A stretch of DNA of 58,678 bases from Christensenella sp. UBA6406 (GCA_002438625.1 DJPS01000016.1:1-58678); one strand, 5' to 3'; numbered from the stretch's first letter, positions 1,941-53,859 are shown. The notes: generated by a model not told the origin, from the letters alone. Translations and numbers: made by a program.

Positions 1941-1968
1941 ATTATACCCCCCCCCGCCTAAAAGTCAA
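1941..1968 (-). promoter_or_regulatory. Near-consensus sigma-A type promoter whose spacer contains a G9 homopolymer
   Basis: On the minus strand: TTGACT (1968..1963), a 16-nt spacer TTTAGGC+G9, then TATAAT (1946..1941). A T8 run (A8 on the + strand, 1977..1984) sits just upstream of -35 like an UP element. It points toward the TasA-like gene about 800 nt downstream. Confidence 0.55.
1947..1955 (-). repeat. Homopolymeric G9 (C9 on the + strand) tract
   Basis: Direct reading gives attata-CCCCCCCCC-gccta. It has the same flank (TAGGC-G9 on the minus strand) as the tract at 47230..47238. Confidence 0.95.
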
Positions 1969-2172: not shown

Positions 2173-2215
2173 CAAAAAAGGCAAAGTGAAGATTTTAATC
2201 ACTTTACCTTTTTCT
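2173..2215 (-). terminator. Intrinsic terminator hairpin, copy A of a 43-nt direct repeat
   Basis: On the minus strand: GGTAAAGTGA-loop-TCACTTTGCC followed by T6. It abuts the TAG stop (2216..2214) of the Toprim-like gene. It is 42/43 identical to 4318..4360. Confidence 0.65.
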
Positions 2216-4317: not shown

Positions 4318-4360
4318 CAAAAAAGGCAAAGTGAAGATTTTAATCACTTTGCCTTTTTCT
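4318..4360 (-). terminator. Intrinsic terminator of the 3956-aa gene, copy B of the 43-nt direct repeat
   Basis: On the minus strand: a perfect 10-bp stem GGCAAAGTGA/TCACTTTGCC followed by T6, about 65 nt downstream of the stop at 4424. Confidence 0.7.
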
Positions 4361-16294: not shown

Positions 16295-16346
16295 AAGTTA
16301 TCTCCTTATTATTTCTCTTTTAGACTTTTTAATCGCTTTACTATAT

Positions 16347-16368
16347 AGCAGTCTTGAATAAGAAAGTT
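16347..16368. repeat. Left arm of a perfect 22-bp inverted repeat (AGCAGTCTTGAATAAGAAAGTT)
   Basis: Read directly from the sequence. Its exact reverse complement is at 16509..16530. Confidence 0.95.
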
Positions 16369-16508
16369 ATTTCTTAAAGTCTTTTCTTTCCATTTTTTCA
16401 TTATATTTTGACTAAAATTTAACATTTTTAGCCAAATTTACATTAATTATTTACCTTTTTAATCAAAACTTAAAAACTAATGCAAATTATAAATGATTTA
16501 ATTTTTTA

Positions 16509-16530
16509 AACTTTCTTATTCAAGACTGCT
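16509..16530. repeat. Right arm of a perfect 22-bp inverted repeat (AACTTTCTTATTCAAGACTGCT)
   Basis: Read directly from the sequence. It is the exact reverse complement of 16347..16368. Confidence 0.95.
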
Positions 16531-16742
16531 CAAATTTGAGCATATCTTGATTTGCTTTAATCTATCTTTCATAAATTAAAACTATTTTTTAAATTTCCAC
16601 ATTCAATTTAATCTATTAATTAAATGTTTATCTTTTGTTTAATGCAGATAAATTTATTTTAATTTTTGCTTGCAAATTAAAATTGTTTTATTTGCATTAT
16701 TTAAATTTATTTACATCAATTAAAATTGAAATAACAAACTAA

Positions 16743-22700: not shown

Positions 22701-25700
22701 TGTTGTAAACTTACCGTTCGCACTATCTGCATAAATCTTTTTAAACAATCCTATGCTTAAAGTTTCGCTATCATTAGCACTTGAATTTATACGAATATTA
22801 GATAATTTATAACCATTACCATCAATAGAGACATTACATAAAGTTACATCTTTTGTCATATTATCACCAGCAACATCATTAAAATCAATATTACTAATGA
22901 TTCTATAATATTTGTTGTCTATAACTTTATCCGTTTCTTTATAGTCTTGATTGAAATAGAAATTAAAATCTTCCGCATTTGCAATTAGATATGGGTTAGT
23001 CTTTGCACCAAGATGAGCATTCACACCAAAGATGTATGTAAATGTTCCATCATCATATCTCACCATTGCCCTTGTTGATTTTGCTATATCATTCGCACTT
23101 ACAAGTTCAGGATAACCTTGCTCCATTGTCCAAACTGAATCATAAACATCTGTAACACTAAAACTGAAATTATTAAATTTAAGTTCTACTGCAAATTCTT
23201 CGCTTGTCAACGCAACCACACCTTCACCCAAACTTGAAGTTTCATACGCTTCATCACCAAGTTTCAAATAATAGCAATTTTCTATTCCGTTAGGGTTTTG
23301 ATTTTGTACATTAGACTTAGCATCAACACCAATAAATGGCATATGTAATGCACTATTTGTTAAAACCTTGCTTGCACTATAAGAGGTTTTAATTGTTCCG
23401 CTACTCTCGTTTGAGAATACAAACCCACCCGTTCTAGCATTGCTAGATAGAGTTATATTTGAATATGAATCGCTTATATCGCCATTGTTCTCATATACAA
23501 AACCGCCAATGTTTCCATTTGAAATTAATGCACCATATTTGCTTCTATAGTTTTCTAATATGAATCCACCTTTAACATAAGAAAACATAATCTCGCCTTG
23601 ATTTCTTACGACAAAGCCCGCAGTTTTGCTATCTGTTGCACTAGGATTTGTGTTGTAAACAAACAAATTACTTACAAAACTTGAAGCAATATGCCCTGAG
23701 TTCGTATAAGCAAAGCCCGCAACACTTCCCTTAACTTTAAGTTGAATAAATGCATTGTTATCTTCACCAACTCTACTGTTTGTGATATCTCCATTATTAT
23801 CTAAAACAAATGCACCCATAGTCAAGTCAGTGTCTGTTCCGCCAATGTTCGCAGTTGTTTTAATTTCAAGCGTTTTCATTGTTGAAACAGTTTCAATTTC
23901 AACACCATTTATAACAGTTGACCTATCATAACTTACTTCACCGCTTGACAAACTTTCATAAGATACCGCACAATTTGTAACAATACCATTATTATAAAGA
24001 GCAAAGAAACCAATATTTATGCTTGAATAAGCAGATAAATCTATTGAATTTAATTCACTTATATTAACAGTAACATTTTTAATTATCGTACCTTCACTAA
24101 TTGTTCCGAACAAACCTAATTCTATAGAATTTCCACTTGCAACCGCTTCAATATCAAAAGTCTTAATTATTAAACTGTAACCATTTCCATCAAAACTTGA
24201 AATTGCCGTACTTATAGGTTTATATGCTGTTAAAGTGATATCATTCATCAAAATGTAATGTTCACCCGCTGTCATTCCCTCAAAATCTGCTTGCGTATAA
24301 ACAGGTAGAGGCAAATCCATATCACTAAATGTAACAATATTAAATGAATATTCTTGCTCAAAAATCATAAATGTTTCTGGCAAGTCATAATCGCTATAAA
24401 CTTTTATATTGTAATTATCATATTCATCAAAGCCATATTTTAAAGTGTATTTTAATCCAAAATTAGAACCCGTTGATAAACCTATTAAATACGCTTTACC
24501 CGTGCTAACATCTTCTTTAATATAAAACTTAGAATTTGGAGTTATTTCAGTTTCTACTGAGCCATAGACATTATTAGATATCTTTTTGCTAAATTTAGAA
24601 ATATCATATCTAATAGAATTTTCCAACTTGCCCATCTTTGCTTCCAACCCTAATTCAAAAGTTGCAGTTGCTGGAAGAAGAGAGTTTAAAGTTATACTAG
24701 AATCTGATTTTAAAACCAAATTATAATCATCATCATAAACAAATCTTTTACCTTCAAAATTTGTGCCACTTGCATTCATAAACACAAATTCGTTATAAGA
24801 TTTAGCAAGATATAATTTCTTTCCACTTGCAAGTTTAATTGTGCCATAGAAATATCCGTTATAAATGCCTTCACTTTCCGTGCTTAAACTTGAATACATT
24901 CTTCTCGCCACTTCAAAAGTAGGAGCAGATTTAAAGAATATTTTAGAAACACCAATTTCATAGTATTCTTGCATATTCATTCTTAAATAATTGCTTTCAT
25001 TATTAAATGAATATAAATCTATATCATCAATTAAATAATCAATAACAATCAATTCCAATTCGCTATAAACACTCTTTGAAATGCCGTTCTCTTCATAATC
25101 AACAACAACCAAAACTGTTATTTTTGTGCCACTTGGAATTCCGATTCCAACATAAATTGTATCTTTATAAACTTCCCTACCATTTACAATATCATAGTTG
25201 TTTGATTGCGTGTAAATAACTTTTTCAACTTCGCTTTCACTTAGCATCAACTCTTCGTTATCTAAAACAGCAGTTGGATTATATGTTTGTCCCGCAAAAG
25301 TTCTTCCCATTGTAACTTTAAGATTTGTCGTTGTTCCTCTAACAACATAATGCGTTGTTGATTCTTCTTCTAACTCAACCTTAACAAAAGGAATCTCTTT
25401 TACATTTAAATCAATAGTTTTAACGGCAGAAACCTGTAAAACGCCATTTTCATCATAGGTGTATGCCGTAACCTTAACAGGCAAGATTGTCCCTTCTGGC
25501 AAATTATCTGAAATAAGTGTTCTTACATAGAAATTTCCATCAAAAGACTTTTCTTCATCGTAAACATTTGAATACTTTTGAAGAATCATTGCCTTACCAT
25601 CATCAGTGTATTGCGAACGTGGCTTAATTGCAGAATAGCCACCCGTTCCATCACCATATTTATTTGCAACTAATTGCGTAAATGTTATTTTTTCGCCATT

Positions 25701-28700
25701 AACTTCTTCACTTTCAACTGTTACCATATCTACATTAGAATAGAATGGGAACATATTAATGCTAAGCATACCCATAGAGTTTGAAGCAATATCAAGAGAG
25801 GCAACTTCATTCCTATTGTAAACAAATTCGCCATCACTATTTTGCTTAATCTCTCCGCTTGTGTAGTTTAGCACATCTAACCTTTGCACTTGTTGTGGTG
25901 CAAAAGTTAAAGTTATATTTTTAGTTTTATCAGCAATCAAATCTGAAACAAATGTAACATCGTATGACTTGTTTTCGGTTAGATATCGTGCAGTAAAACT
26001 ATTTTCCAAATTTGCATTTAATAAATAAATTATTTTATAAGTGCCATCTTCTAGCATCGTTGTGCTTTGATAATTTAGTGATAAATTCAAATAATCATCG
26101 CCACAACTAACAAAAGCAGTTAAACCATCGTTTTTAGAATCTGAAATCATAAATACTTCAAAACTAATCGTATCACTTGGACTGTAAACAACGCTATCAA
26201 CACTTGCTTCAATATTAATTGCACCCTCATAAATGTTTATATTTGCATTCTTAGCGTTAATTTGCTTATTGCTTGCATAAACATTTTGAGTTACAACCAC
26301 ATTTAACTCGTCTACAAATTGTGCCTTAATGAACGGCTTAAATATAATTTCATTAGAATATGATTTTATTCCTTCAAAAGACAATGTTCCAACGCTATCA
26401 ACATCCATTGTAATTTTGTCCACATAAACAGGATAGCATCTTCCGTTATAATATACACCATAACCAACCTTTCCATCTTTTGAAACTTTATCTAAAATCA
26501 ACTTGTCCACATCTAAATCATTAAACACCAAATTGTTGTTAGACATAGTTGCATAATGTTTTACATCATCTATCTCTATATAATAAGTTGCACTAAACTC
26601 TTGTTGATTTACTGTAAATTGCCCAAAATCAAAATAAGAAGTATACATATTTTGATAAATAGGATATTTACCACCATTATAAGACATAAACAAATTAATT
26701 GTGCCATCTTCGCCCGCTTCAAACACAACTGTTCCACCAGTTAAATCTTTAAATACAACATCAGAGCCCACAACTTCTGCTTTATAAACTTTCCCACCAA
26801 TAGCAGTGTAATAAGATGTTGTACCTTCTATATAAGTGTTTGATGCCTTTGATTGCATTTCAATCGTTAGACCCATTCTTTCGCTTTGCTTAAATTCAAC
26901 ATCGTTTAAAGTGCTTAGAATCTTAGCAAAAGCATCTAATTTAAAGTCCTTTCTAATGCTAATTGTTGCGCCATTATCATATTCCACACCGCTTGCGTTT
27001 GTACCACTATAAAGTTTAAATGCAGAAACAAAATTTGTTACATAAATTTGTATTGTTGTCTTTAAACTAGGATTTACAACACTTGAAATTTCAAGCAATA
27101 CAAGCCCTTCACCTTTAATTGTTATTGTGCCATTTGCATTTACTGAAACAATTTTACTTTCGTTTCCCTTTGCATCTTTTGCAACAACATTAAGCCTTAC
27201 CGCACTAAATGGAATAGGGAAAACTTCCACATCTAACACATCGCTTAAATTTACGACATTTAAGTTTCCAGCAATTTGCCTAAACTCGTATTTTTTATCA
27301 CTGCTTAAATTACTTTCAAAACTTGCATCTAATTCATAATAGAACAAAACTGCCTTAGAATCATCAACTTTAACAAATTTGTCTCCACCTTCTTTAACTG
27401 TTACGCTCATCATATCGTAAAGAACGCTAAATAAAGGAAGTTCATTAGGTCTGCATATGATTAACCTACCACCATTAAGACTTTCATCCAAATCAACATT
27501 TTTGCCGTTTACGACAATCGTTGTGCCAGGTTTAACCCATAATTTAACATCATTATAAGTTGCATTAATTAAATTTGATTCATTATAACTATTGTCCGCT
27601 TCACTAATATAATAATATGAACTAACCGCATTTATAACGCCCAAAGTTGCACCATTTGCAAAACTGAACCTTACATCTGCACCATTTGCAACACCAATCA
27701 TTTTTCCGCTTGTTGCAACAATATCACTGTAACAGCCCAAAACAAAACCATTTGTTACAAAGCCTGCAATCGTTCCAATACTTCCACTTCCGCTTATTGC
27801 ATTGCCTTTAAATGCAGTGCTTATATAACTGAATGAAATAATGCTCTTTATTTCAATATTAATTACGCTTGTTTTGCTTTCATTTTCGTACGCAATTAAG
27901 CCCCTTTCTTGACTATCCATAAAGCCAACCAAACCGCCAACTTTATCTTCACCAACAATCGCTAATTCATTGCCCGTTTCAACAACTGAATCACTAATTT
28001 GATTTGTGCTTACTCCACTTATTCCGCCAACATTACTCTTGCCTTTAATCTTACCAGTAAAATACGCATTATTTATATAATAATCATTTGCACCAACAAT
28101 TCCACCAACATTTAAAATGCTATTTGCCACAATATTTGCAGAAACGCCAACATCTTTAATCATTATCTTATTAAAGAAATCTTCCGCACTCTTTGCCTTA
28201 AAATCAATAGAAGAATCATCTTCACCTTCCGCCGTTGTTGCCGTGCTATAATCAACAATCGCACTACCAATAAATCCGCCAACAGCCGAACTTGCATAGC
28301 CCGCATCTTCAACAATTAACTCACCTAAAACAACATCTAAACCGCCATTGCCAAAATATGATTGATAAATTATTTTGCCATTATCTCCGCTTGTTGCATT
28401 CCCGCTCAAACTGCCAGTTACAGTTGCACTTAAAATTGAAGTTATTTCATTTGCAGAATTTATATAAACATTTGACTGTATTGCACCCGCAAAACCGCCA
28501 ACATAAATATCGTTATCCGTAATTGCACCGTTATCAACAACCTTCAAATGCTTCAAATCAACTGCCGTAAATCCGCCACCTAGCGTTACATTGACCCCGT
28601 TTTCAATAAAGCCAAACGCACCACCAACAAAGTTGCTCTTTTGTGCCAAATTTATGCAGTAGTTATCCACATTATCCACAAGACTTTTAACTGAAATATT

Positions 28701-31700
28701 TTCAATTTTAGTCTTTTTAACTTTTTCGTTCCTATCTATCGTATCATCAATAGTCTGCCTTACAACACCCGCAAGAATGCCCACATATAAATCAGCATTT
28801 AAGTTGCTTGCATTTATATTAAATTTAGAGCATTCAACTTCCAAATCCACAATTTGCCCGCAATTTATGCTTGCAAACAAACCAACATAGGCATTGTTTG
28901 AGCCACTCACATTCGCATCAATGCTTAAACCTGTAATTTTTGAAGTTATTTCAATTTGATTATATCCAATTTTATATTTTCCACTTAAATATCCCGTAAA
29001 TGGTCTATCATAAGCACCAATAGGTGTCCAAGATGAAATTTTAGATAAATCAATGTCATTGGCAAGCACATAATGCAAACTCATAGAATTCGTATTTTCA
29101 CCAATCGCAATTAAGTCATTTGAATCCGTTATCCTATAAGCGGTGTCAATGCTTGAACCATCTGCCACAACAATTTGTATATCTCTATACAAACTCATAT
29201 GGTCCAAATCAACATAACTATCTTCCGCTACAACCCTAAGCGTTGCAACACCACCCCTAAGTGGCATAACTCTGCCATCACTTGAAACAGTAAACACAGG
29301 CACAGCATTATCATCGTTTCTATTTTGAATGTAAATATATTTTAAATTCTTATTAAATGCATCATTTGGATAGGCAACGGCTTGAACATTATAAGAATTT
29401 CTAGTTCCAACTAAATTGTTCTCATTATCATAACTTGCAAGCCCGTCCCTAGCATCAAAATAAATTTCACTATTGAATACGTTAACAAATTTAATGTCTT
29501 GCACCATAACTGCCTTAACAACTTCAATTACACAATTTGCACTATATGTCCTTCCTTTATCCTTAACATAAGCAACAACGGTAACCACTTCGCTATCTCT
29601 ATCGCTATCCAAAATTGGACCAGCCGTAAATGTTGTCATAAGTCCATTAAATTCACTTATTGAACCAGATGAACCCACAATCTCCCAAGCTATATCTTCT
29701 TCCTTAATTGATGCATTGTTAGGATAAATAGATAAATTTAATTTTAATTGACTATGCTTTGAAATATTGTTATAGCCAACAGTTGTATAATCTTTAAGCG
29801 TTGCACTTGCATAATTTATTGCAACATTATTAATAGGTATATATCCTTCAACCGAAAAAGTTTTAGTCAACGCTTCATCATCTTGCACCACGCCAAACTC
29901 ATTATAGCCATAAATATAAACAGTTACAACCGCCCTACCAACACCTAAAATGCTCACATAACCTGTGTTGTTAGAAACTGAGACATATTGCTGTCCTTGA
30001 GCATTTACTTCATATCTAATAAGAGCAACGCTGGCATCATCATTCACCTTAACACTCGTTGAAAATCCGCCCTTAATTTTAGCAGATACATAACTTAAAG
30101 AGCCTTGCCCATCAACAACCTTTTCGCCAATAGAACCATTTTCAAATTGATTATCTCCTAAAATTATTGCACTTTCTAATTTTCCATAAACAATTATTTT
30201 TATTGTTAAATAATGCCCATTGCCACTATCAAATGTAATCTCACTTTCTCCAGCCTTTAAGCCATAAACAACATATTCTGTGTTAGATTGCTTTAAAATT
30301 CTAATATTGTCATTATCAATTTTATAAGTTATGCCAGATGTGTCCCCCGCATTGTTCCCTGTACCCAAATAAATTACAGAGCCACTTCCGCTTCCTTCGC
30401 CTTTTTCAACATAAATAGTGCTTTGACCCGTTGTTAATTCTTGTATACCTTCAAGAACTGTAAGATTAACTTTCGCCTTTACTTCATCGCCCTTGTTATA
30501 AACCTTAGCAATTTGAGAAGTTGCAGTGAATGAATATTTTGTATTTTGTGCTACTGTTGAAAGCGTGCTTTTAATGTAAATCGTTTCACCCGCCTTAACA
30601 GTAAAAGGTTCAAACCCAACAACACTTCCAGATGCATCTAAAATCGCACCAAGCCTATTGCCTTCACTATCCAAGATTAAAAGCGAATTTTGAACAGCAA
30701 GCGTATCCTCAAATTCAATAAGAATATCTGCATTTTCTTCCAAAACACTTGAAGGTGTTAAAGTAAATCTAAATGCCATTCCATAATCGCCACTTGCATA
30801 ACGATTGTAAATTGTTTTGTTAAACTCGCCACCATTAGCCTTAGAACTTTCACCATTTACATTAATGTCATAAGGAGATTCAATAACACTAACATTAAAT
30901 GTAATTTCAAGTGGCTCAATAAAGTCTTCCGCACCATCAATGCTAAACTTTAATGTAATCGCACTCTTGCCAAGCCCAACCGCTTTAACCGCCACTTTAT
31001 TTACGGAAAGTTTTTCAGCAGTAACACTTTCTCCGTTCTTAGAAATAGTTAAATTTTGGTTCATTATGTTTGCAGTATAATCTATTTCAAAAACAAATTC
31101 ACTATAATATTCAATAGTCTTAACCATTGTAAGCGTATCATAAATTGCTTGCCCATTTTGATAAAGAATTAATGAATCATTATCAGTTGAATAAACTCGC
31201 CTTATCGTTACATCTTCTTTATCCACACCCTTTATAACATTCACAGGGATGTTTGCAAACACTTCATCGCTAACCTTTGCCTTAACAACCAAACTGCCCG
31301 CACTTGTCGCATTTGTCGCATCTATAACACCAGTGTTCTCATCAATAGTAACATTTAAATTTTGCGGATTAGATTCAATGCTATATTTAATCTCCGAAAC
31401 ATTGCCATCTATTGGCGCTATCATCATACTTTCGTTAGGCCTTATAGCATTCTTATGTCCTATTGCAACATAATGTGTATAGCCCGTAACAAGTGCCATA
31501 GACTTAATTGGTTGAATAACATTTACCAAAATATCCTTATGTACTTTGCTGTTTTCAGTTAAAAACGCAACAACCTTTGCTTGACCTGCTTTTAAGCCCG
31601 TAACAGTTACACTATATCTGTCATATTTCCTTTCGCTAGAAACAAGCACAACACCTTCGTTTTCAACCCTAAACACAATGTGTGAATTCTTAAACTCGTT

Positions 31701-31886
31701 GACCGTAACTTCAAAATTAGCCGTGCTTAAATCACCGCCTTCGCCTTCACTATCATCTAGCCTTATTGTTACTTCATCAACTGTTGATGTTATTTTCGTT
31801 CCTATCTTAACTTCTCCGCAACCAGACACAAACACTGATACGCAAAAGAATAAAAATATTAGACTTAAAGCAAATCTTTTCTTCAT
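16743..31886 (-). CDS. Giant (5047 aa) surface lipoprotein, paralogue of the 3956-aa protein, with Ig-like domains, many GLUG-motif beta-helix modules and a Gly/Cys-rich C-terminal tail
   Basis: A single uninterrupted ORF. The lipobox is VSG-C (MKKRFALSLIFLFFCVSVFVSGC). The N-terminal region is collinear with the 3956-aa protein (IDATNATSAGSL vs IDATNATVAGKF; TLTPSSVLEEN vs SLSPSSVLLED). Abundant VGG(L/F/I)(V/I)G repeats are present. The SD AAGGAG precedes ATG 31886. Confidence 0.85.
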   Translation of the reverse strand: MKKRFALSLIFLFFCVSVFVSGCGEVKIGTKITSTVDEVTIRLDDSEGEGGDLSTANFEVTVNEFKNSHIVFRVENEGVVLVSSERKYDRYSVTVTGLKAGQAKVVAFLTENSKVHKDILVNVIQPIKSMALVTGYTHYVAIGHKNAIRPNESMMIAPIDGNVSEIKYSIESNPQNLNVTIDENTGVIDATNATSAGSLVVKAKVSDEVFANIPVNVIKGVDKEDVTIRRVYSTDNDSLILYQNGQAIYDTLTMVKTIEYYSEFVFEIDYTANIMNQNLTISKNGESVTAEKLSVNKVAVKAVGLGKSAITLKFSIDGAEDFIEPLEITFNVSVIESPYDINVNGESSKANGGEFNKTIYNRYASGDYGMAFRFTLTPSSVLEENADILIEFEDTLAVQNSLLILDSEGNRLGAILDASGSVVGFEPFTVKAGETIYIKSTLSTVAQNTKYSFTATSQIAKVYNKGDEVKAKVNLTVLEGIQELTTGQSTIYVEKGEGSGSGSVIYLGTGNNAGDTSGITYKIDNDNIRILKQSNTEYVVYGLKAGESEITFDSGNGHYLTIKIIVYGKLESAIILGDNQFENGSIGEKVVDGQGSLSYVSAKIKGGFSTSVKVNDDASVALIRYEVNAQGQQYVSVSNNTGYVSILGVGRAVVTVYIYGYNEFGVVQDDEALTKTFSVEGYIPINNVAINYASATLKDYTTVGYNNISKHSQLKLNLSIYPNNASIKEEDIAWEIVGSSGSISEFNGLMTTFTAGPILDSDRDSEVVTVVAYVKDKGRTYSANCVIEVVKAVMVQDIKFVNVFNSEIYFDARDGLASYDNENNLVGTRNSYNVQAVAYPNDAFNKNLKYIYIQNRNDDNAVPVFTVSSDGRVMPLRGGVATLRVVAEDSYVDLDHMSLYRDIQIVVADGSSIDTAYRITDSNDLIAIGENTNSMSLHYVLANDIDLSKISSWTPIGAYDRPFTGYLSGKYKIGYNQIEITSKITGLSIDANVSGSNNAYVGLFASINCGQIVDLEVECSKFNINASNLNADLYVGILAGVVRQTIDDTIDRNEKVKKTKIENISVKSLVDNVDNYCINLAQKSNFVGGAFGFIENGVNVTLGGGFTAVDLKHLKVVDNGAITDNDIYVGGFAGAIQSNVYINSANEITSILSATVTGSLSGNATSGDNGKIIYQSYFGNGGLDVVLGELIVEDAGYASSAVGGFIGSAIVDYSTATTAEGEDDSSIDFKAKSAEDFFNKIMIKDVGVSANIVANSILNVGGIVGANDYYINNAYFTGKIKGKSNVGGISGVSTNQISDSVVETGNELAIVGEDKVGGLVGFMDSQERGLIAYENESKTSVINIEIKSIISFSYISTAFKGNAISGSGSIGTIAGFVTNGFVLGCYSDIVATSGKMIGVANGADVRFSFANGATLGVINAVSSYYYISEADNSYNESNLINATYNDVKLWVKPGTTIVVNGKNVDLDESLNGGRLIICRPNELPLFSVLYDMMSVTVKEGGDKFVKVDDSKAVLFYYELDASFESNLSSDKKYEFRQIAGNLNVVNLSDVLDVEVFPIPFSAVRLNVVAKDAKGNESKIVSVNANGTITIKGEGLVLLEISSVVNPSLKTTIQIYVTNFVSAFKLYSGTNASGVEYDNGATISIRKDFKLDAFAKILSTLNDVEFKQSERMGLTIEMQSKASNTYIEGTTSYYTAIGGKVYKAEVVGSDVVFKDLTGGTVVFEAGEDGTINLFMSYNGGKYPIYQNMYTSYFDFGQFTVNQQEFSATYYIEIDDVKHYATMSNNNLVFNDLDVDKLILDKVSKDGKVGYGVYYNGRCYPVYVDKITMDVDSVGTLSFEGIKSYSNEIIFKPFIKAQFVDELNVVVTQNVYASNKQINAKNANINIYEGAINIEASVDSVVYSPSDTISFEVFMISDSKNDGLTAFVSCGDDYLNLSLNYQSTTMLEDGTYKIIYLLNANLENSFTARYLTENKSYDVTFVSDLIADKTKNITLTFAPQQVQRLDVLNYTSGEIKQNSDGEFVYNRNEVASLDIASNSMGMLSINMFPFYSNVDMVTVESEEVNGEKITFTQLVANKYGDGTGGYSAIKPRSQYTDDGKAMILQKYSNVYDEEKSFDGNFYVRTLISDNLPEGTILPVKVTAYTYDENGVLQVSAVKTIDLNVKEIPFVKVELEEESTTHYVVRGTTTNLKVTMGRTFAGQTYNPTAVLDNEELMLSESEVEKVIYTQSNNYDIVNGREVYKDTIYVGIGIPSGTKITVLVVVDYEENGISKSVYSELELIVIDYLIDDIDLYSFNNESNYLRMNMQEYYEIGVSKIFFKSAPTFEVARRMYSSLSTESEGIYNGYFYGTIKLASGKKLYLAKSYNEFVFMNASGTNFEGKRFVYDDDYNLVLKSDSSITLNSLLPATATFELGLEAKMGKLENSIRYDISKFSKKISNNVYGSVETEITPNSKFYIKEDVSTGKAYLIGLSTGSNFGLKYTLKYGFDEYDNYNIKVYSDYDLPETFMIFEQEYSFNIVTFSDMDLPLPVYTQADFEGMTAGEHYILMNDITLTAYKPISTAISSFDGNGYSLIIKTFDIEAVASGNSIELGLFGTISEGTIIKNVTVNISELNSIDLSAYSSINIGFFALYNNGIVTNCAVSYESLSSGEVSYDRSTVINGVEIETVSTMKTLEIKTTANIGGTDTDLTMGAFVLDNNGDITNSRVGEDNNAFIQLKVKGSVAGFAYTNSGHIASSFVSNLFVYNTNPSATDSKTAGFVVRNQGEIMFSYVKGGFILENYRSKYGALISNGNIGGFVYENNGDISDSYSNITLSSNARTGGFVFSNESSGTIKTSYSASKVLTNSALHMPFIGVDAKSNVQNQNPNGIENCYYLKLGDEAYETSSLGEGVVALTSEEFAVELKFNNFSFSVTDVYDSVWTMEQGYPELVSANDIAKSTRAMVRYDDGTFTYIFGVNAHLGAKTNPYLIANAEDFNFYFNQDYKETDKVIDNKYYRIISNIDFNDVAGDNMTKDVTLCNVSIDGNGYKLSNIRINSSANDSETLSIGLFKKIYADSANGKFTTIKNLSLHILEANALNVSYMGGLAGIVEDTNILNINVSSDSVMQAYNVVGGLAGIISGQSVLNRINSSASVQAVYKASEKQEKPLVYDKQENVRKISHAGSVAGIADLSTELPYEEFVLMNNANIKFVSVSGDVSVSGEYVGGVFGYLGESSAVYDISFEVKYDDSENRQQIYSTYCAGGIVGVNYGSINHAKVRHSDENQAKVDNAIKTYLKTGATGNFGKTNLFNGKLWYVGGVVGINYGGIVTNSYTRVDIVDPNISSDLDEVTEQYFGGLVGVTYGGEISSAYASGNIVTKASETEENDNYYAGGLIGRVNYLAGRVIKDQDNKTNPYVITLRTLYALNYWDYSTAKTTFRTDGTNYYAGTYVGYVSPIEDSKITTDVGALYSINQIKFNGKNLFSGSNGVSGSVALRMVGKNDANLLGNSSELDYELERSLSSITLNDIYEIDSTNFAHVTTFLLELLNVSGGSIWDRYWGEYPELRLGNKLNEEEIYTAEQLIKAINESPYKTFRIMNDLDFSGVTSFVKRTFTGKLLSARTDDKDNLISTNFYNIDYTALFAPANKNENIGFFVSTKRATISEINFFIIGANYSSTYVERFGVVSAQDEASSLNNVRVICVSNPQVTSSNAKALSLGTLKINGCKVGGIVGDVSGTIVLNSCSFSGNIELINNYTPTHNLYFGGLIGYSAIVKLYDRTTFGYFDFATNMQFGVYTQKTATEEYAFRLVSEVSLTSLPSGSSTVKVSETDSKCDNLYVGGLVGFNGSMLIANNASIQGRTNSNITISVDASAKYIRVGGLAGRIDSGNIRNFYAYVNVNCSSGEWAYVGGLLGESTNAVISSVYLGAFNNNSKVNVENINSIAKVGGIVGSSIVTSMNASNLSNQTNAYVDIDFSGNAKYLAMGGIYGEFHNYAKTNQAIQNNRINAYGTLNANTAQFMYVGGLVGNNVLKVLDSNDSSATSINYSYSGMEISIYSNKIAYVGGIIGNAENLSLNNLVLSGDETSYKDSGSLEIKNCVASGYIDISTGSKFEHIYAGGIAGDTRDSISNTTILTTIVKPEYGNENKNKYNIDVLAGVNNYKGGNNGITVVDEVTGSRFESSKLLTSDDNTIRFANSDSYNILDYVDFLDEFDRSADMMYQYIKEFITIKSGTVFNPIRVSSSSGILSSSKTYHLLTRDITVTSSKSINGVFAGNYKQITVSDSLFSKIGKYGVVGNFAVKTTSSSGISSAMVADTSNGVVHDLYATGKVQGSSVGGVVTTNNGMILNVIADIEVISSGTSGIIASTSEDGTIFNCFTLGGLVVDSGNYAGTFVGRSENTLFKFVNSVTSLDTTLSSRNAGVVGYADSKTKFVYCSFDPQAVTRNSIATSTSSLKTLAFDRYLSDTINTGSSYYLLYATNKNTNNVCRNSTKNFGYAYFPRFDSFIRTTITGGYTYVNNFSAFYKLMDTDYKAGVKIKLAYNINQHGFDVKGETKKAWNPKSAAGFSGTLDGNNKKLKGIAIDSKKVSNGDNSALMMGFLYVIDNATITNLDLQLESAGSNMMTEYERYYSSSSASTNVMFADMSKYLSYSGGLCAIASKSTISKVKVSFLTTTKLTANVVGGLVGYAESTNITSCETSNLSVTAYDMIAKATSSGDAIYARNLGLAGGICGAMSDGNLTSSKNNGCTVTGDSALDANFYETVLMNNSVDKVSASNVQATVSFKTFTLQKNETIKILTNFDYTDGNNGFNASPVGGLVAYANNVNISSCSNSGKVVTGHAGNGDNAKGFDPETKKGMKGGNGGNVIAGGIVGINANCNLSGNTNSGSFDFVSDGDHGTAAGRGGNGSDGKDDATSCCYGRTNHIQCPLSHGDWGKGVHSCSDVTKGNDGGNGGNGGYAFIGNSYGATSLNPSSSSYKASGSTIDLQCAPGGDGGKGTKGGDGSHFKAEFFGVLLWEGYHAGKNSGRSGNGGYNGNKVNGDDGTVGEYDVDVGGEEQSGGAGAQGEPSYLQN

Positions 31887-37643: not shown

Positions 37644-40004
37644 CTATTGACCGCCTTTGCCTCTATTCGCCTTATCTACAGCGTCCTTTATGCTCTTTTT
37701 AAATTCTTCTTTACTTGTCTTTTTCTTTTCATAACCAGTTGCTTTCTTTTGAGATTTAGCTTCTGCTTTAATAATCTTCTTATTTTCTTTTCCGCCGTAT
37801 TTATTTTCCTTAATCTCTTTCTTCAACTTTTTATATTCTTCGGCAGAAATTTGACCAGATTCATACTTCTGCTTAGCAACTTGCCTTCTTATTTCATTTT
37901 CCTTAACCGCTTCCGCCGCAATCTTAGGAGCATCTTCTATCATCTTGTTTGTTTCAGCAAGTGATGCATCTTCACCCTTGCCTGACAATATAGCTTCTTT
38001 TCTTGCCTTAGCATCTTCATGAGCTTCATTAATTCCACGTTCTTTAGCATTGGTCAATCTAGAGTTTCGCTCTTCTGCACTCATTGATGCCATTCTATTA
38101 TCATTTAGCCTATGCATATGATATTTCAAATTTGCTTTTCCTTCATCATCTAAATGACTATATAAATTTGCATCTAGCGAATTAAATGCCCTTTCACTAG
38201 CAGCATTATGATCTAAGCCTTCTGCAATACCTTTTTGATATTCCTCATTATAGTTTTCAGACATTTGACCAATCTGACCTTTCTCAAAACCATTATTTTG
38301 CTCAAATAATCTAGCACCTAACTCATTATTTGCTATGTCAGCTTCAGTCATTGAACTATATTTATCCGCCTTGCTAGACATATTACTATATTGATTATTA
38401 ATATCGTTTACTTGCTTATCTTCAAGTTGTTTACTTGCTGTAAGTTGCCCTTTACCAGTCTTTTTATTTTGATGTTTTTCAGACATCGCTTGCATCTTGC
38501 TAGCACTAACATCTTTCAACTTGCCCGCAGCGAACTTACCAGCACCAACACCAACCGCCATTGCCGCATTTGTCTTAACAAAGTCAGAAACATTTTTCTT
38601 TAACTTATCGCCCGTGCCTTGAATGTCTTCCGCACCAATCATTTCTCCAAGCCATTTGATTGCTTCTTTACAAACCATTGCACCCGCAATAACAATAAAC
38701 AAGTCAAATATGTTTGCAAGCAAAATTGCACCTACTCCACCCGCAGTCAGTAAAGCGACCAACCCAACAGGCAAAACAAAATTTAAACCCGAATTAACCG
38801 CACTTTGAATGGTCCCCATCATATCCACTTGTAAAAGCGTGTTGAGCAATATAAAATATAAATTTAATGCAACCACAGGTGCAAACACCATTGTAACTTT
38901 TCCAATAAATTTCCTCTTCCATGTTCCAAATGGACCAGGGTCAAGTGGCATCATTGAGATAACCGCAGGTGAAATTACAAACAATATTGCAAGCTCGTAT
39001 AAACGCACCGCCGCTCCTAGCGTGATAGACACCAAAATCCCCGCAAGGAAGAATATGCTAAATATTGCTACAATCCAGTTAAAATCTGCCAAATCATAGA
39101 AATAGAACACCATTGATGCATTTTTACAGTTGAAATATGTGTCTTTTGTTATTCCTTTGTCCGTACCAATTATACAAGTATCAACATAATTAGCGAACCT
39201 ATCTCCCGTTGTCATAGTTTTTTTCAAAACAACTTGCCCCTCAATCGCACCACCATATTTTTTACTTATATCTTCAATAGTCTTGCATTGGTCAAAAGCA
39301 TCATCAATCGCTTCCGCCATTTTTTCTTTATCGGTAAACCCAGTAAATAGATAATTATTTATATTATAGCCATCATATTTATGCTCAACATCTGTCATCG
39401 CCTTAAAGAAACCTTCATCACTTCTCGCCCTATTACAAGAGTATGCTGAGGTTAAAAACAATTTATTTGAAATTAGTGTTGATGAGTTAGGACTTGTTGC
39501 ATAATCGAGGGCTTGCATTAAATACCCCGACGCAATTATTCCAAATATGCAAACCATAGGAATAAAGAAGAAAGAACCAAAAGCCCTTAAACTCTTTCCA
39601 ATAATCGCACTCTTTCCATTGCCTGACTTAGCCGTTTCTGTAGTTGCTTCACTTTTAATAACAGCAATAAAAGTGAATATGATAAGCAAGAAGAACGACA
39701 ACATTAAAATTCTCATAAATGCTTCATAAATGAATGGATGCATAATTATATCTATTATTAAGTTGCCACTATTTGCAAAAAGCGAGTTAGACTTATACAC
39801 AACAGGCACAGTTCCAGCAAACATTTGGAAAAGAATTTGAATGCAATCTAAAATATTTGCCACAGAACTCCAAAGTGCAAAAAGCAATTTATAGAACATA
39901 GCAGCGATATAAGCACCTATATCACCAATTATTCCAGTTATCCAATCAATTATTGCACTTATAGGATTCCAAAAGTTCAAATTACTTATGTTAAATCCGC
40001 TCAT
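37644..40004 (-). CDS. Large polytopic membrane protein with a roughly 300-aa highly charged Lys/Glu-rich C-terminal tail; function unknown
   Basis: Multiple hydrophobic segments occupy the first approx. 470 aa. The tail is rich in K/E/A (…KKLKKEIKENKYGGKENKK…). A good SD, AAGGAG, is present. Confidence 0.6.
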   Translation of the reverse strand: MSGFNISNLNFWNPISAIIDWITGIIGDIGAYIAAMFYKLLFALWSSVANILDCIQILFQMFAGTVPVVYKSNSLFANSGNLIIDIIMHPFIYEAFMRILMLSFFLLIIFTFIAVIKSEATTETAKSGNGKSAIIGKSLRAFGSFFFIPMVCIFGIIASGYLMQALDYATSPNSSTLISNKLFLTSAYSCNRARSDEGFFKAMTDVEHKYDGYNINNYLFTGFTDKEKMAEAIDDAFDQCKTIEDISKKYGGAIEGQVVLKKTMTTGDRFANYVDTCIIGTDKGITKDTYFNCKNASMVFYFYDLADFNWIVAIFSIFFLAGILVSITLGAAVRLYELAILFVISPAVISMMPLDPGPFGTWKRKFIGKVTMVFAPVVALNLYFILLNTLLQVDMMGTIQSAVNSGLNFVLPVGLVALLTAGGVGAILLANIFDLFIVIAGAMVCKEAIKWLGEMIGAEDIQGTGDKLKKNVSDFVKTNAAMAVGVGAGKFAAGKLKDVSASKMQAMSEKHQNKKTGKGQLTASKQLEDKQVNDINNQYSNMSSKADKYSSMTEADIANNELGARLFEQNNGFEKGQIGQMSENYNEEYQKGIAEGLDHNAASERAFNSLDANLYSHLDDEGKANLKYHMHRLNDNRMASMSAEERNSRLTNAKERGINEAHEDAKARKEAILSGKGEDASLAETNKMIEDAPKIAAEAVKENEIRRQVAKQKYESGQISAEEYKKLKKEIKENKYGGKENKKIIKAEAKSQKKATGYEKKKTSKEEFKKSIKDAVDKANRGKGGQ

Positions 40005-43755: not shown

Positions 43756-46700
43756 TTATAGTTGAATGAATAAGGCAGGGGCTACACATATATATTCAAG
43801 CGAAACGCCTTTCCCTGCTGTTGCAATTCCACCATTCTCACCCACACAAGCGGCAGTTCCTGAATATTCCGTTTTTGTACGAATCCAGTAATAACTTGTA
43901 ATATTTTTACTAGGTCTAGCACCTAATGCTCCTGTTGCGCCAGCATAATCTGATGCATATTTTAGCCTTTGAGATACATTATTATAATAGGTTTTAAAAT
44001 CTCCTATAGATGGAATAAACACATAATCGCCACTATCTACATCTCTTGCATAAACTGTTTTATCGTTTACGTTACTAGTTGAAAAACTTCCTGTATCTAA
44101 TGTTGTTGGCATAATTTTACTTTTTTGAGTTCCTTCTACAAATGCAGAATCTTTAAATTCTCCGTTCAAATATGGTTTGATATCACTTTCTGTATATGGC
44201 ATTTTGCTTGATAAACTAAACGGCATTGCGAACAAAGATGAAATACTATTTAAGTATGCAACATTATTTGTTTCATCTGTATAAAATATTTTCCATATAA
44301 TTGGTTCTATTCTAAAATAATAATCTTTTTTTAGTATATTATATCCACTACCCCAACTAAAGTAATTATATACACTGGTAGCTGGACTTGTGTCAGTTAG
44401 TTCGCTTGTTGGAGTTGCTTTTTTCTTTACATACAAATAGCCATCATCACCTTCATAACATTCATTAAAAGTTGCAAATTGTTTTACTTTTGTTGTATCA
44501 ATAGTTGTTTCGTTCGGTTTAACTGTTTGAGGATAATATCCAAATGCGATACAATTACCCGCACTTTCAGCACCGCTTTCATCTACACTAAAATATTCTG
44601 TTGGAGATTTTGCCATTGCATAACCGCTCGAATTCCAACTTGCTTTTATTGAACTTAAATAAGTGCTATAATCACTTGATATGCTACCTCTTACATACCC
44701 ATTATAATATGAACTTGAAGTATTGTAGAAATCTTTTAATTTTACCTGTACTTTTACATACCAAGTTACATTTTCACTATTTAAAAATTCATTAAGCAAA
44801 ACACCTTTTTCATCTGTCATTTGATTACCATCTTTATCAAAATAACCAACAAACTTATATTTATCATCTGTAATTGTAAAGGTTGGTGCTGTTGCCTTAT
44901 TTTCTTCATTATAACTTGTTGCACTATTGTAAAGTTGCTTTGAGTTATGTTCGCCATATAAAGTAGTGTTCTCTTCGCTTGAAAAGTTCCCCTTATCGCT
45001 TACACTATCAGCATTAAATATAATTGTAGGTCTTGAAATTGTTACAGTTACATTTGGCTCTTCTAGGTTATAATTTTGAAGGACATCTATTTCACCTACA
45101 AGTTCAGCCGTAACTCTTACCGCTTTATTTTCACCTGCACCAGCAGTATTTATCTCTCCGCTAATTTTTCCCAAAGTAATATTATCAGTGCCTTTAATTC
45201 CTATTATTTTTCCGCCACTAACTTCAACACTTGTTTTTCCATTTGCAAACCTGTCTGTCGCTTTTAATTCCTCTATTTTTAATGTTGCTTTTGTTATTTT
45301 AAATTCAACAATTTTTTGACCAACATAATCGCCTATACCTATAAAATACAATTTCGCCGTATTTGTAACATTTATAGATGCAGTTATTACAATATAATCC
45401 ACATCTTTAACCAAGTTACTTCCATTATAAGTAATGGTGTATGATGGCAATGAATTTGATGAATCATATTCTTTATCCTGAGCTACAACGTTTGCGTCCT
45501 TAATATTTTTCGCTTCTGTTATTTGCAATGTATAAGATGCTGTTGAAACTTTTCCATTTAAATCAGTTGCACTTGCACTTATGATTGTTGTGCCAACTTT
45601 TAAAATATGCACAAGCCCTGTTGCACTGTCAACTGTGGCAATATCCGCTGAACTGCTATTATAAACAATTTCCACATTTTCAGTTGATACACATTTTAAA
45701 GAATTTATAAAATCGGCATCACCTAATTTTTTAATAACTGTTGAATTATTAAAACTTAATTCTATTTTTCCCCATTTTGGCTTTAATGTTATATCACCAT
45801 ACATTTGTAAAATGACTTCTTTTGCTTTTACAATTTGGGCAAAATTCCAGTTTCCTCCCGCTTCCACAACTTCCCAACCAATAAAATATTGATTATTTTC
45901 ATCATTAGTTGTTATTTCAGGTAATGACAAATTTGTATCTGCTAAACTGTAACCAATTTTATAAGTGTTTGTTGTGCTGTCTAAACATGAAGATAATTGA
46001 TTTTTATATGCTTCATTTTGAGACATATCAAAAGTGATTGTATAACTTAACGCTTCCCATACCGCATATAATATTATTGCATTTGTTGTTATTTCAGTAT
46101 TTTCAATGGTTATTTTACTATTATTTACAGCATATGTTGTTGCTCCAAATTTCCAACCACTTAGTTTATAGCCTTGTTTTGTTGGTGTTTTATCTATTGC
46201 TATTTCTATTGTTTCATTTTCTTTTGTTACATTTTGTGCTGATGGCGTGCTATTCTCATCTCCGCCATTTACATTGAAAAATACTTTTATTGTGTTATTA
46301 TTCCCACTATATTTTGCATATAGGGTTATATTTTCTGTAACTGTATAATTCTTTCCACTTACACTTTCTTCCGCTGTGCTATTTGCGAGTTGTGTGAAAT
46401 TTTTGTCTTTATACCAAGTTACATCTACGCCTCCAACTTGTGGCAATATTGCAACTTTACTTTCATCACTATTTAAGCATATATAACTATCTACACTTAC
46501 TCCTCCGCAAGTGTCGTATTTAACTATATATCCTGCTTCTGTATATTGCCCAAATATATTGCTTAAATTTATTGCCTTTTCTAAATCTTCTACACTTTCA
46601 ACATTCTTTGTTTCGCCTTTGTCTGTGTATTGCAAATTACTGCTTTGCACTGCTTCTGCTTTTATTTGTAAACTTACACCATTTGTGCTTAAATTATTCC

Positions 46701-47112
46701 CAAATTGTGTTAAGTCTTGCATTTGTAATCCGCTTGCAAATAAGTTATATGTCTTTACTTCACTTGCAGACATTTCCTTTAATGCAGATTTTTCATAATT
46801 TGTTAAATATAGATAGCCACCACTATATTGCCAACCATAATCTTCTGTGCTATTTGAATATGTTGCTTCTAGTGGCAAAATGCTATTTAATGCTATTGCT
46901 GTCTTTTGACTATTTTCATCTTCTCCACTGTAATTAACCTTAATTCTTACGTAACCATTTAGTCCGCTACCTTCCGCTAACTTAACAGCAATGCTACTGA
47001 ATAAGTTGCTACCTTGCTTAACTTCATCAATCTTTATTTGTTTTGAATTTGTTACATTTTCATTATTGTTTACAATTAGATTTACATCTAATTTTTCAAA
47101 CGAAAAAAACAC
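43756..47112 (-). CDS. Large surface protein/adhesin body: TasA/camelysin-like N-terminal domain, Listeria-Bacteroides (Flg_new-type) repeats, a Big_2-like domain and a DUF6273-like C-terminus. It is separated from its start codon and signal peptide by a frameshift in a G9 tract.
   Basis: The TasA-like domain ends ...SLQIKAEAVQSSNL (compare TLTITVQAIQADHL in the 219-aa protein). Repeats carry G(Y/W)-type motifs (KQGYKLSGWKF, YFIGWEVV, YKFVGYFD). A Big_2-like segment reads ADIATVDSATGLVHILKVGTTIISASA. The C-terminus reads YYWIRT...YICVAPALFIQL. The track start at 47112 is an internal GTG (Val) of a frame that stays open up to 47259. Confidence 0.75.
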   Translation of the reverse strand: MFFSFEKLDVNLIVNNNENVTNSKQIKIDEVKQGSNLFSSIAVKLAEGSGLNGYVRIKVNYSGEDENSQKTAIALNSILPLEATYSNSTEDYGWQYSGGYLYLTNYEKSALKEMSASEVKTYNLFASGLQMQDLTQFGNNLSTNGVSLQIKAEAVQSSNLQYTDKGETKNVESVEDLEKAINLSNIFGQYTEAGYIVKYDTCGGVSVDSYICLNSDESKVAILPQVGGVDVTWYKDKNFTQLANSTAEESVSGKNYTVTENITLYAKYSGNNNTIKVFFNVNGGDENSTPSAQNVTKENETIEIAIDKTPTKQGYKLSGWKFGATTYAVNNSKITIENTEITTNAIILYAVWEALSYTITFDMSQNEAYKNQLSSCLDSTTNTYKIGYSLADTNLSLPEITTNDENNQYFIGWEVVEAGGNWNFAQIVKAKEVILQMYGDITLKPKWGKIELSFNNSTVIKKLGDADFINSLKCVSTENVEIVYNSSSADIATVDSATGLVHILKVGTTIISASATDLNGKVSTASYTLQITEAKNIKDANVVAQDKEYDSSNSLPSYTITYNGSNLVKDVDYIVITASINVTNTAKLYFIGIGDYVGQKIVEFKITKATLKIEELKATDRFANGKTSVEVSGGKIIGIKGTDNITLGKISGEINTAGAGENKAVRVTAELVGEIDVLQNYNLEEPNVTVTISRPTIIFNADSVSDKGNFSSEENTTLYGEHNSKQLYNSATSYNEENKATAPTFTITDDKYKFVGYFDKDGNQMTDEKGVLLNEFLNSENVTWYVKVQVKLKDFYNTSSSYYNGYVRGSISSDYSTYLSSIKASWNSSGYAMAKSPTEYFSVDESGAESAGNCIAFGYYPQTVKPNETTIDTTKVKQFATFNECYEGDDGYLYVKKKATPTSELTDTSPATSVYNYFSWGSGYNILKKDYYFRIEPIIWKIFYTDETNNVAYLNSISSLFAMPFSLSSKMPYTESDIKPYLNGEFKDSAFVEGTQKSKIMPTTLDTGSFSTSNVNDKTVYARDVDSGDYVFIPSIGDFKTYYNNVSQRLKYASDYAGATGALGARPSKNITSYYWIRTKTEYSGTAACVGENGGIATAGKGVSLEYICVAPALFIQL

Positions 47113-47263
47113 ACCATCAACTTTGTTTGATGCCGTAAAATACGCATAACTTATTCCAAATCCTAAACTTGCAAGGAATGCTATAACTACTACAGATATA
47201 ATTATACCATATATTGTATTTCTAGTCTGCCCCCCCCCGCCTATTTTGTGGTTTATCCTTCAT
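47113..47263 (-). other. Displaced 5' end of the adhesin gene: SD, ATG, G9 tract and SipW-type signal-peptide coding segment
   Basis: GAAAAGGAG lies 9 nt before ATG 47263. That frame reads MKDKPQNRRGGAD-stop (TAG at 47224..47222). Downstream of the tract, the body frame encodes GQTRNTIYGIIISVVVIAFLASLGFGISYAYFTASNKVDG and continues into VFFSFEKLDV. Confidence 0.75.
47230..47238 (-). repeat. Homopolymeric G9 (C9 on the + strand) tract within coding sequence
   Basis: Direct reading gives ctg-CCCCCCCCC-gcctatttt. The minus strand reads AATAGGC-G9-CAGACT. Confidence 0.95.
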
Positions 47264-47629
47264 TTTCTAAACTCCTTTTCTTTATATTTTTCCTTCATTT
47301 TTTCTTGCACCATTGTAGTCTAGCCCCTAAAACTAAGCCATAATCTTAAATTAAAACTTTTCCCTTTTAAAATTTTAATCCAAAACCATAGCCACGACAC
47401 AAACGCACAATTTATATGAAGTTTTTTGATGTTATCTTCTTTATTTTACATTTTTATTTTTTCTTTGTCAATTATTTTTTATTAATTTTGTTAAAATTTG
47501 AGTTCTTTTTAAATTTAAGGGTGAGGGGAAAGAATATTGTGAACAATGTATATAAATTTTGTATAACTGTCTAGAAATTTGTGCTATTATGTGATAGAAT
47601 ATAAGAGTACAAATGAAAGGAGATTACAA

Positions 47630-53665: not shown

Positions 53666-53727
53666 AACTAAAAGCCCCCAATTCTCTTAACATTTTAATG
53701 CTTTTTATTTGAATTGTCAAGCAAAAA

Positions 53728-53859
53728 TGCATAAAATAGGATAGTCAAAATTGCAAAAAATGCATAAAATAGGCAGTTACTTTTGTAACAATTTGCATAA
53801 AATAGGCGGTTACTTTTGCGACAAATTGCATAAAATAGGCAAATTGATTATGTTTTTAT
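53728..53859. repeat. Four direct repeats with an exact 33-bp period (core TGCATAAAATAGG) upstream of the DUF4143 ATPase gene
   Basis: The cores lie at 53728, 53761, 53794 and 53827. Units 2 and 3 are near-identical over 33 bp (TGCATAAAATAGGC(A/G)GTTACTTTTG(T/C)(A/G)ACAA(T/A)T) and unit 2 contains the small palindrome GTTAC-n4-GTAAC. Confidence 0.85.

Follow-up and report, generated by a model that had tools for sequence, protein, structure and literature searches.

An out-of-frame G-tract splits the signal peptide of a putative TasA-related adhesin gene in Christensenella sp. UBA6406: a candidate slipped-strand contingency locus

Introduction

Intragenic G-tracts have been established experimentally as replication-slippage switches in the pilus clusters bbr_0113 and bbr_1889 of Bifidobacterium breve UCC2003 (Penno et al. 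2022, PMC9187656). The in-frame tract length of one locus lay outside its two major length populations in culture and was enriched in the mouse gut, and the same paper warns, in a section entitled 'Authenticity of G-tract sequences', about the G-tract lengths held in databases (PMC9187656). The locus that we describe here resembles the B. breve switch closely. Both hosts are Gram-positive gut commensals; the secretion signal and the body of the protein lie in two ORFs split by the G-tract; the gene concerned is, or in our case would be, the first of a surface-fibre system; the second ORF has no active start within it; the sequenced reference is in the OFF state; equivalent tracts are found across the genus; and there appear to be two independently switched loci per genome. 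The two systems differ in that the present host is a low-GC (31%), uncultured, Firmicutes-like organism, and the tract is therefore far more anomalous in composition than in B. breve. Tracts here are G7-G10 as opposed to G10-G12, and length spectra were measured in B. breve whereas ours are known from assemblies. Finally, the present locus shows no LPXTG motif and no sortase match among the ORFs scanned, and has instead an AYFTA/SipW-type signal and a TasA-like N-domain. By analogy, we would say that it works like the Bifidobacterium sortase-dependent pilus switch without being a member of that system.

The poly-G/C loci of Campylobacter jejuni, Helicobacter and Neisseria (e.g., pgtA, lgt, hmbR, autB) and the poly-A loci of Mycoplasma (vaa, p78) work as we propose below: translation of a protein that is exposed on the surface, or modifies it, is switched by a homopolymer in the 5' part of the coding region. 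G/C tracts are likewise conspicuous in AT-rich genomes. These contingency loci differ from ours in belonging mostly to Gram-negative pathogens or Mollicutes, in encoding unrelated protein families, and in that switching has been measured there. In C. jejuni, tracts commonly rest at G9. The opa genes of Neisseria carry CTCTT pentamer repeats which, like the tract described here, lie in the signal-peptide coding region, where sequence constraint is loose. They form a multigene family of independently switching, mosaic paralogs, as the present genes may do; their products are outer-membrane beta-barrel proteins, unlike the protein considered here. The other classical position for a phase-variation tract is the promoter spacer, as in Neisseria porA/opc, Bordetella fim and Mycoplasma hyorhinis vlp.

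The third point of comparison is the group of SipW-processed Bacillus biofilm fibre proteins, TasA/CalY/camelysin (PF12389) and TapA, which share with our protein an AYFTA-like signal end, a beta-rich domain of about 200 aa, and the pairing of a small subunit-like protein with a larger one that has the same N-domain. They differ in that our locus has no direct PF12389 match, no TasA fold match and no sipW among the window ORFs scanned. TasA operons are under transcriptional control (SinR/SlrR), and none of the papers listed by a literature search on SipW in connection with homopolymeric phase variation mentioned SipW.

Results

The window and its G-tracts

We analysed a 58,678-nt contig of Christensenella sp. 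UBA6406 (GCA_002438625.1, DJPS01000016.1), referred to here as the window. It is chromosomal and low-GC Firmicutes-like, with genes for SecA, GyrB/ParE-like and GyrA/ParC-like proteins, ACP, SpoIIID, TtcA and an M23 peptidase, and has a G+C content of 31%. Its G/C runs are 5 or 6 nt long except for two of exactly nine (Table 1). G runs of at least 8 occur at two sites (four overlapping matches), compared with a mean of 0.27 in 100 dinucleotide-preserving shuffles, none of which reached four; the first-pass annotation was right to call a 9-nt G/C homopolymer unexpected in such AT-rich DNA. A scan of the window for other notable simple-sequence repeats found none.

Several other features of the window deserve mention. 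Two adjacent ORFs (4424..16294 and 16743..31886, minus strand) encode giant predicted lipoproteins of 3,956 and 5,047 aa with lipobox-like FAGCAGG and VSGCGE motifs. A 786-aa protein (37644..40004, minus strand) matches the Mollicutes conjugative-element families MMCAP2_0566, above cut-off, and Mbov_0396, below cut-off, and may mark the remnant of an ICE in a Firmicutes-like chromosome. An intergenic head-to-tail 33-nt repeat (53724..53841; 3.6 copies, 82% match) lies upstream of an AAA_14/DUF4143 gene.

Table 1. Features of the window and tract states at the homologous loci (minus strand where marked; for loci, the correction is the change in number of G that restores the frame)
Feature or locus	Position or source	Strand	Remarks
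219-aa secreted protein with AYFTA signal	473..1132	-	N-domain homologue by hhalign
Promoter with G9 (1947..1955) inside its spacer, TTGACT-tttaggcGGGGGGGGG-TATAAT	1941..1968	-	11/12 matches, spacer 16 nt
Long open frame	43756..47259	-	0 internal stops in 1,167 codons
DUF6273, C-terminal	43765..44208	-	E 1e-6, 29.1 bits, cut-off 23.5 passed
Flg_new (Listeria-Bacteroides repeat)	46063..46284	-	E 5e-6, 26.9 bits against a cut-off of 27
N-terminal beta-rich family domain	46405..47112	-	From GTG 47112, the start of database gene call P0001; AF2 pLDDT 82
Remainder of signal peptide, +1 frame, QTRNTIYGIIISVVVIAFLASLGFGISYAYFTAS	47128..47229	-	Hydrophobic core and AYFTA motif
Short frame as sequenced, ATG...G9...TAG, MKDKPQNRRGGAD	47222..47263	-	Basic n-region of signal peptide, cut by frameshift
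G9 homopolymer, proposed switch element	47230..47238	-	G8 or G11 in frame
Shine-Dalgarno GAAAAGGAG	47272..47280	-	8 nt before ATG; SD and ATG in 7/7 homologous loci
Promoter-like TTGACA-17 nt-TAAAAT	47443..47471	-	11/12 matches; implied 5' UTR about 175 nt
Window	This contig		G9, needs -1
L009	Same locus in GCA_002405695.1, 99.8% identical		G9, needs -1
L001	Paralog, other locus of MAG GCA_002405695.1, 69% aa identity		G9, needs -1
L002	ENA		G10, needs -1
L004	ENA, about 96% identical to L002		G9 then AG, needs +1
L005	ENA		G9, needs +1
L007	Logan		G9, needs -1
L008	ENA		G7, needs -1

The adhesin gene is split at the tract

The Shine-Dalgarno sequence of the adhesin gene is of the same type as those of neighbouring genes (AAGGAGA/AGGAGG), and the ATG that follows it (47263..47261) opens a frame of just 13 codons, which passes through the G9 tract and ends at TAG 47224..47222. 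A 1,155-codon frame containing the signal peptide is offset by +1 from this start. The long frame reads ...GGGGQTRNTIYGIIISVVVIAFLASLGFGISYAYFTASNKVDG at its upstream end and ends at 43756; the other two frames across the same interval contain 111 and 144 stops. Its first canonical in-frame start is GTG 47112, which lies beyond the signal peptide and is preceded by AAAGTTGATGGT, with no Shine-Dalgarno sequence. When indels were introduced into the tract by script, translation from ATG 47263 gave an ORF of 1,168 aa after removal of one G and of 1,169 aa after addition of two, and products of 13-20 aa at the other tract lengths (13 aa unchanged, 20 aa with one G added). The break in the gene coincides exactly with the tract, and the gene has no other plausible start.

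The main elements had been proposed in the first-pass annotation, and they bear recomputation well: the ATG with its strong Shine-Dalgarno sequence and the frame to TAG are correct to the base, the count of nine G is exact, translation bears out the hydrophobic core and AYFTA in a long frame open to 47259, the scripted edits agree that G8 or G11 fuses the ATG to the whole protein, and GTG 47112 is indeed the sole canonical in-frame start, with neither Shine-Dalgarno sequence nor export signal. The sequence LTFAYFTANKE is likewise present in the 219-aa protein, as had been noted.

The promoter-like sequence upstream of the gene has both of its hexamers preserved in the paralog L001, whose homology to the window begins just ~25 nt upstream of the -35 hexamer. 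Downstream, the product carries a weak Big_2 match in addition to the domains in Table 1. A scan of the 1,158-aa product found no LPXTG-like motif and no C-terminal anchor, and no sortase was found among the window ORFs scanned, a set that left out the two giant ORFs. An exact database look-up of the window's 1,118-aa product returned no record.

Tracts at homologous loci

We read the DNA of relatives at each locus that could be reached and recomputed the frames by script; all tract lengths come from consensus assemblies. Seven distinct loci (the window, with which L009 is counted, and L001, L002, L004, L005, L007 and L008) have a G7-G10 tract where the basic n-region (ENR[RW]GG) gives way to the hydrophobic core; among them are a same-species paralog and genes of only ~40% identity. 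The layout is common to all seven: a Shine-Dalgarno sequence and ATG, a short basic peptide, the tract, and then the h-region and AYFT in another frame. Every one of the seven is out of frame, five needing the loss of one G and two the gain of one. A 1-nt change restores an intact ORF of 365-1,495 codons in each except L004, a 1,013-bp contig whose fused frame reaches 180 aa. In the full-length loci the tract is the sole lesion in ORFs of 979-1,495 codons, and the off-frames stop every 8-10 codons. L002 and L004 differ by a single indel within 440 aligned nt, and that indel is located at the tract.

An in-frame allele was found at none of the seven tract-bearing loci, an outcome with a probability of 0.06 under an expected ON share of one in three. 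Comparison with orthologous loci, which the first-pass annotation had suggested as a check on phase variation, gave a divided answer: the tracts vary in length (G7, G9, G10 and G9AG) and fall into two OFF frames, but no in-frame allele is among them. In a more distant homologue, L006, the GG of the n-region is coded GGT GGC, there is no tract and the N-terminus is uninterrupted; still more distant members of the family have complete, normal signal peptides. Over the N-domain, dN/dS was 0.33-0.70.

Other peculiarities were seen at individual loci. The polar SSSNK that follows the tract is coded as (C)TAGTAGTAA(TAA) in L002 (133..144), L005 (414..436) and L008 (700..712), so that one OFF frame meets 2-4 near-adjacent stops straight after the tract. 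At 61..66 of L003, within the N-domain, an in-frame TAA stands in place of the GAA of its relatives. L004 diverges wholly from L002 in its 3' part (830..1013), into low-complexity AT-rich sequence that may represent a chimeric contig or an insertion.

Two ways of reading through the split without a change in the tract were considered and set aside. Termination-reinitiation, or a downstream alternative start, is contradicted by the finding that most loci have no ATG, GTG or TTG before the hydrophobic core, and by the basic, n-region-like peptide upstream of the tract in all loci. The only candidate starts are found at the h-region: L008 has a GTG where it begins, and TTG or ATG codons occur within it in L002, L005 and L008. 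Initiation at any of these would produce a signal peptide without a basic n-region. A prfB-style +1 frameshift at the stop codon does not fit, because both the distance from tract to stop and the last sense codon vary (GAC-TAG, ATA-TAG, CAC-TAG, ATC-TAA).

The family appears to be rare. Neither the GTDB species-representative contigs, a collection that apparently does not hold the window genome or GCA_002405695.1, nor the metagenome contigs yielded a relative when scanned with N-domain alignments; alignment-based protein homologue searches gave two proteins and one, and an exhaustive HMMER search was much more productive. The closest homologues of P0001 are N-terminally truncated gene calls as well. 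Going by their labels, several of the samples may come from pig or poultry gut studies.

Strains, paralogs and a sister species

The window's exact SecA protein is present on other contigs and provided a route to same-species loci. All adhesin tracts in the consensus assemblies of the species are G9, namely those of the window, L009, L010 and the paralog L001. L010 and L011 are 100% identical to the window and so are not independent of it; L009 represents another strain (24 mismatches over 12 kb) and reproduces G9. Since L009 and L001 belong to one MAG, the species has at least two adhesin paralogs; their gene neighbourhoods differ, and each has a G9 tract in the OFF state. Their promoter, 5' UTR and signal-peptide regions are ~86-90% identical, and the alignment of window 47499..46054 with L001 9616..11080 is a mosaic containing a fully identical internal block of ~170 nt. 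A scaffold N-gap in L009 (15400..15560) falls exactly on the block common to the paralogs. This suggests gene conversion between the paralogs, and an identical block with a gap is typical for recombining surface-protein families.

In a sister species (L012, flanks 96% identical) the adhesin gene is absent from the locus, and there is no G run of 6 or more. The segment found in its place (14400..17300) contains CRISPR-like direct repeats (GTTTTAGACCTATACGAAATGACATAACTCTCAAAC) and a Cas9_PI-domain fragment, and also encodes a different 416-aa AYFTA-signal protein without a G tract.

Relationship to TasA

Neither the adhesin N-terminus nor the 219-aa protein matched PF12389 (Peptidase_M73) at E up to 10, and TIGR04088 (SipW-dependent-type signal peptide) scored 16.2 bits (E 0.0087) on the fused N-terminus and 9.2 bits on the 219-aa protein, against a cut-off of 19. 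The AF2 model of the N-domain had no PDB match at E <=0.001, TasA not being among the 50 matches listed, and a profile search against PDB sequences returned nothing. The links to TasA are transitive: the family profile matches small AYFTD-signal proteins that pass PF12389, and the 219-aa protein aligns with the adhesin N-domain with an hhalign probability of 93.5%. In view of these results we describe the predicted product as a secreted protein of large size, the N-domain of which is a remote relative of TasA/camelysin-type subunits. Of the original label 'TasA-domain', then, the remote homology stands, but a Pfam match, a fold match and an above-threshold signal-peptide match do not accompany it.

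The 219-aa protein is a candidate fibre subunit, and both the export of the adhesin via a SipW-type peptidase and its adhesin or fibre role are what its sequence would suggest. No signal-peptidase family was detected with Pfam and NCBIfam among the ORFs scanned in the 58.7-kb window, again leaving out the two giant ones; sipW may lie elsewhere in the genome.

A second G9 tract in a promoter spacer

The other G9 tract of the window is found ~815 nt upstream of the TasA-like gene for the 219-aa protein. It directly follows an intrinsic terminator, the hairpin of which recurs at 2202 and 4347. A G10 tract here would give the promoter an optimal 17-nt spacer. About 85 kb of DNA from this species contains three G9 tracts, two in the signal-peptide regions of AYFTA-signal adhesin genes and this third one upstream of another AYFTA-signal gene. 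On its 5' side the spacer tract has TAGGC, as do the coding tracts in the window and in L001, L005 and L007. We regard the spacer tract as a candidate site of transcriptional phase variation. It is G9 also in L014, L015 and L016, making four assemblies with the window, but the whole segment 750..3500 is 100% identical in these four strains, whose flanks differ by 1-3%, and the constancy of the tract therefore says little about its stability.

The ~800 nt between this promoter and the TasA-like gene (1133..1940, minus strand) match nothing in Rfam and contain ORFs of 37 aa at most; they may form a long leader or encode an unknown RNA. An element of ~40 nt, a hairpin with a T-run, AAAGG(T/C)AAAGTGATTAAAATCTTCACTTTGCCTTTTTTG, occurs on the minus strand after two different genes (2175..2215 and 4320..4360) and looks like a reused intrinsic terminator.

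Discussion

The same out-of-frame G run is found in every close relative, and an ordinary slippage on/off switch is therefore the most likely explanation. With moderate confidence, we suggest that the G9 tract is a slipped-strand contingency locus resting in its OFF state. The tract is real, and that it has a function is very probable; its distribution argues for a conserved, selected feature of the gene family. Varied lengths and two OFF frames are what would be predicted of a hypermutable switch, and not of a one-off pseudogene or a sequencing error. Moreover, since the in-frame length of B. breve was not a major population in culture, an all-OFF consensus is compatible with a working switch. 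The phase switch of the first-pass annotation, OFF as sequenced, can accordingly be kept as far as the split gene, its 1-nt repair and the conserved, length-variable tract are concerned, whereas an ON allele was not seen and same-species tracts are always G9. It is for the latter reasons that reversible switching remains something we infer, namely that tract length changes frequently and reversibly within a lineage and that ON cells exist.

Two observations that count against switching, an invariable G9 in the consensus of the species at both paralogs and the same -1-nt correction at five of seven out-of-frame loci, also favour programmed or tolerated recoding, in which the out-of-frame tract is the fixed, selected state and every cell makes some full-length protein. 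This could come about by slippage of RNA polymerase on the C-run template, producing G8 transcripts, or by +1 slippage of a ribosome with tRNA-Gly on GGG GGG G. The P-site GGG would re-pair perfectly one base downstream in every -1-type locus, and the tract is preceded by AGG and CGG, Arg codons that are rare at the genome's 31% GC. However, L004 and L005 need the opposite correction, tract length varies (G7, G9, G10), and RNAalifold on six loci found no conserved pairs around the tract, where Rfam at gathering thresholds and at E up to 1 gave no match either. Transcriptional slippage in bacteria has been documented mainly for A/T runs, which also counts against recoding. The abstract of PMC1088944 deals with A and T runs only, and the proven Gram-positive precedent uses replication slippage (PMC9187656). 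We therefore consider recoding unlikely, and find it rather unlikely, too, that the tract is a conserved recoding signal, decoded in every cell, that sets a low constant dose of a fibre-tip adhesin. If recoding were nevertheless true, it would make this the first case of a G-run recoding site lying within the signal peptide of a Gram-positive bacterium.

The lack of any intact allele, which is awkward for a switch, would follow simply if the family were being inactivated, the homopolymer acting as a mutational weak spot at which costly surface genes are knocked out and decay begins. The in-frame TAA in the N-domain of L003, the absence of the gene from the locus in the sister species and a fairly high dN/dS, up to 0.7, are all consistent with such decay. 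Yet dN/dS is below 1, the long ORFs stay open with the tract as their sole lesion, and tract, Shine-Dalgarno sequence and ATG are kept at 40% protein identity, where decay would be expected to erode all three and to interrupt the tract more often; we think this explanation quite improbable. More improbable still is an error of sequencing or assembly that hides an in-frame tract (e.g., G8) and an ordinary intact gene. Illumina chemistry does struggle with homopolymeric G, and database lengths can be wrong (PMC9187656); L010 and L011, being identical to the window, offer no independent reading, and some contigs have low coverage (2.5 for L008, according to its record name). But loci taken from several samples, under records named in differing styles (NODE_, k141_/k119_, Logan and a UBA MAG), are without exception out of frame, and in both directions, and the independent strain L009 is again G9.

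Under the phase-variation reading that we prefer, the gene would be transcribed from the conserved promoter near 47450, and ribosomes starting at the Shine-Dalgarno sequence and ATG 47263 would first make the basic n-region of the signal peptide. On a G9 message the TAG would stop them after 13 codons, and it is proposed that nothing is therefore exported. Slipped-strand mispairing during replication would occasionally yield G8 (or G11), joining the n-region to the hydrophobic core, the AYFTA cleavage region and a secreted protein of ~1,160 aa with a TasA-like N-domain, Flg_new and Ig-like repeats and a DUF6273 C-terminus. A population would then consist mostly of OFF cells with a minority of ON cells, and the G9-bearing paralog elsewhere in the genome could make surface variation combinatorial.

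The suggestion in the first-pass annotation that this mode of variation is novel was overstated, given that the same layout, with OFF reference genomes, has been established experimentally in B. breve (PMC9187656). The mechanism itself is textbook and has a near-exact Bifidobacterium precedent; what is new is the protein family and the lineage. There are also consequences for annotation. Gene callers pick an internal GTG, TTG or ATG, leaving the database proteins P0001, P0002, P0003, P0012, P0013 and P0016 without signal peptides; the result is that surface proteins of an entire family are wrongly annotated as non-secreted. The layout of Shine-Dalgarno sequence and ATG, ENR[RW]GG, Gn, h-region and AYFT provides a simple rule by which such genes can be found and repaired. 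If switching proves true, homopolymer contingency loci would extend to an uncultured lineage of low-GC gut Firmicutes known solely through metagenome assemblies, and to a TasA-like, probably SipW-type family of fibre proteins or adhesins that is otherwise thought to be regulated transcriptionally.
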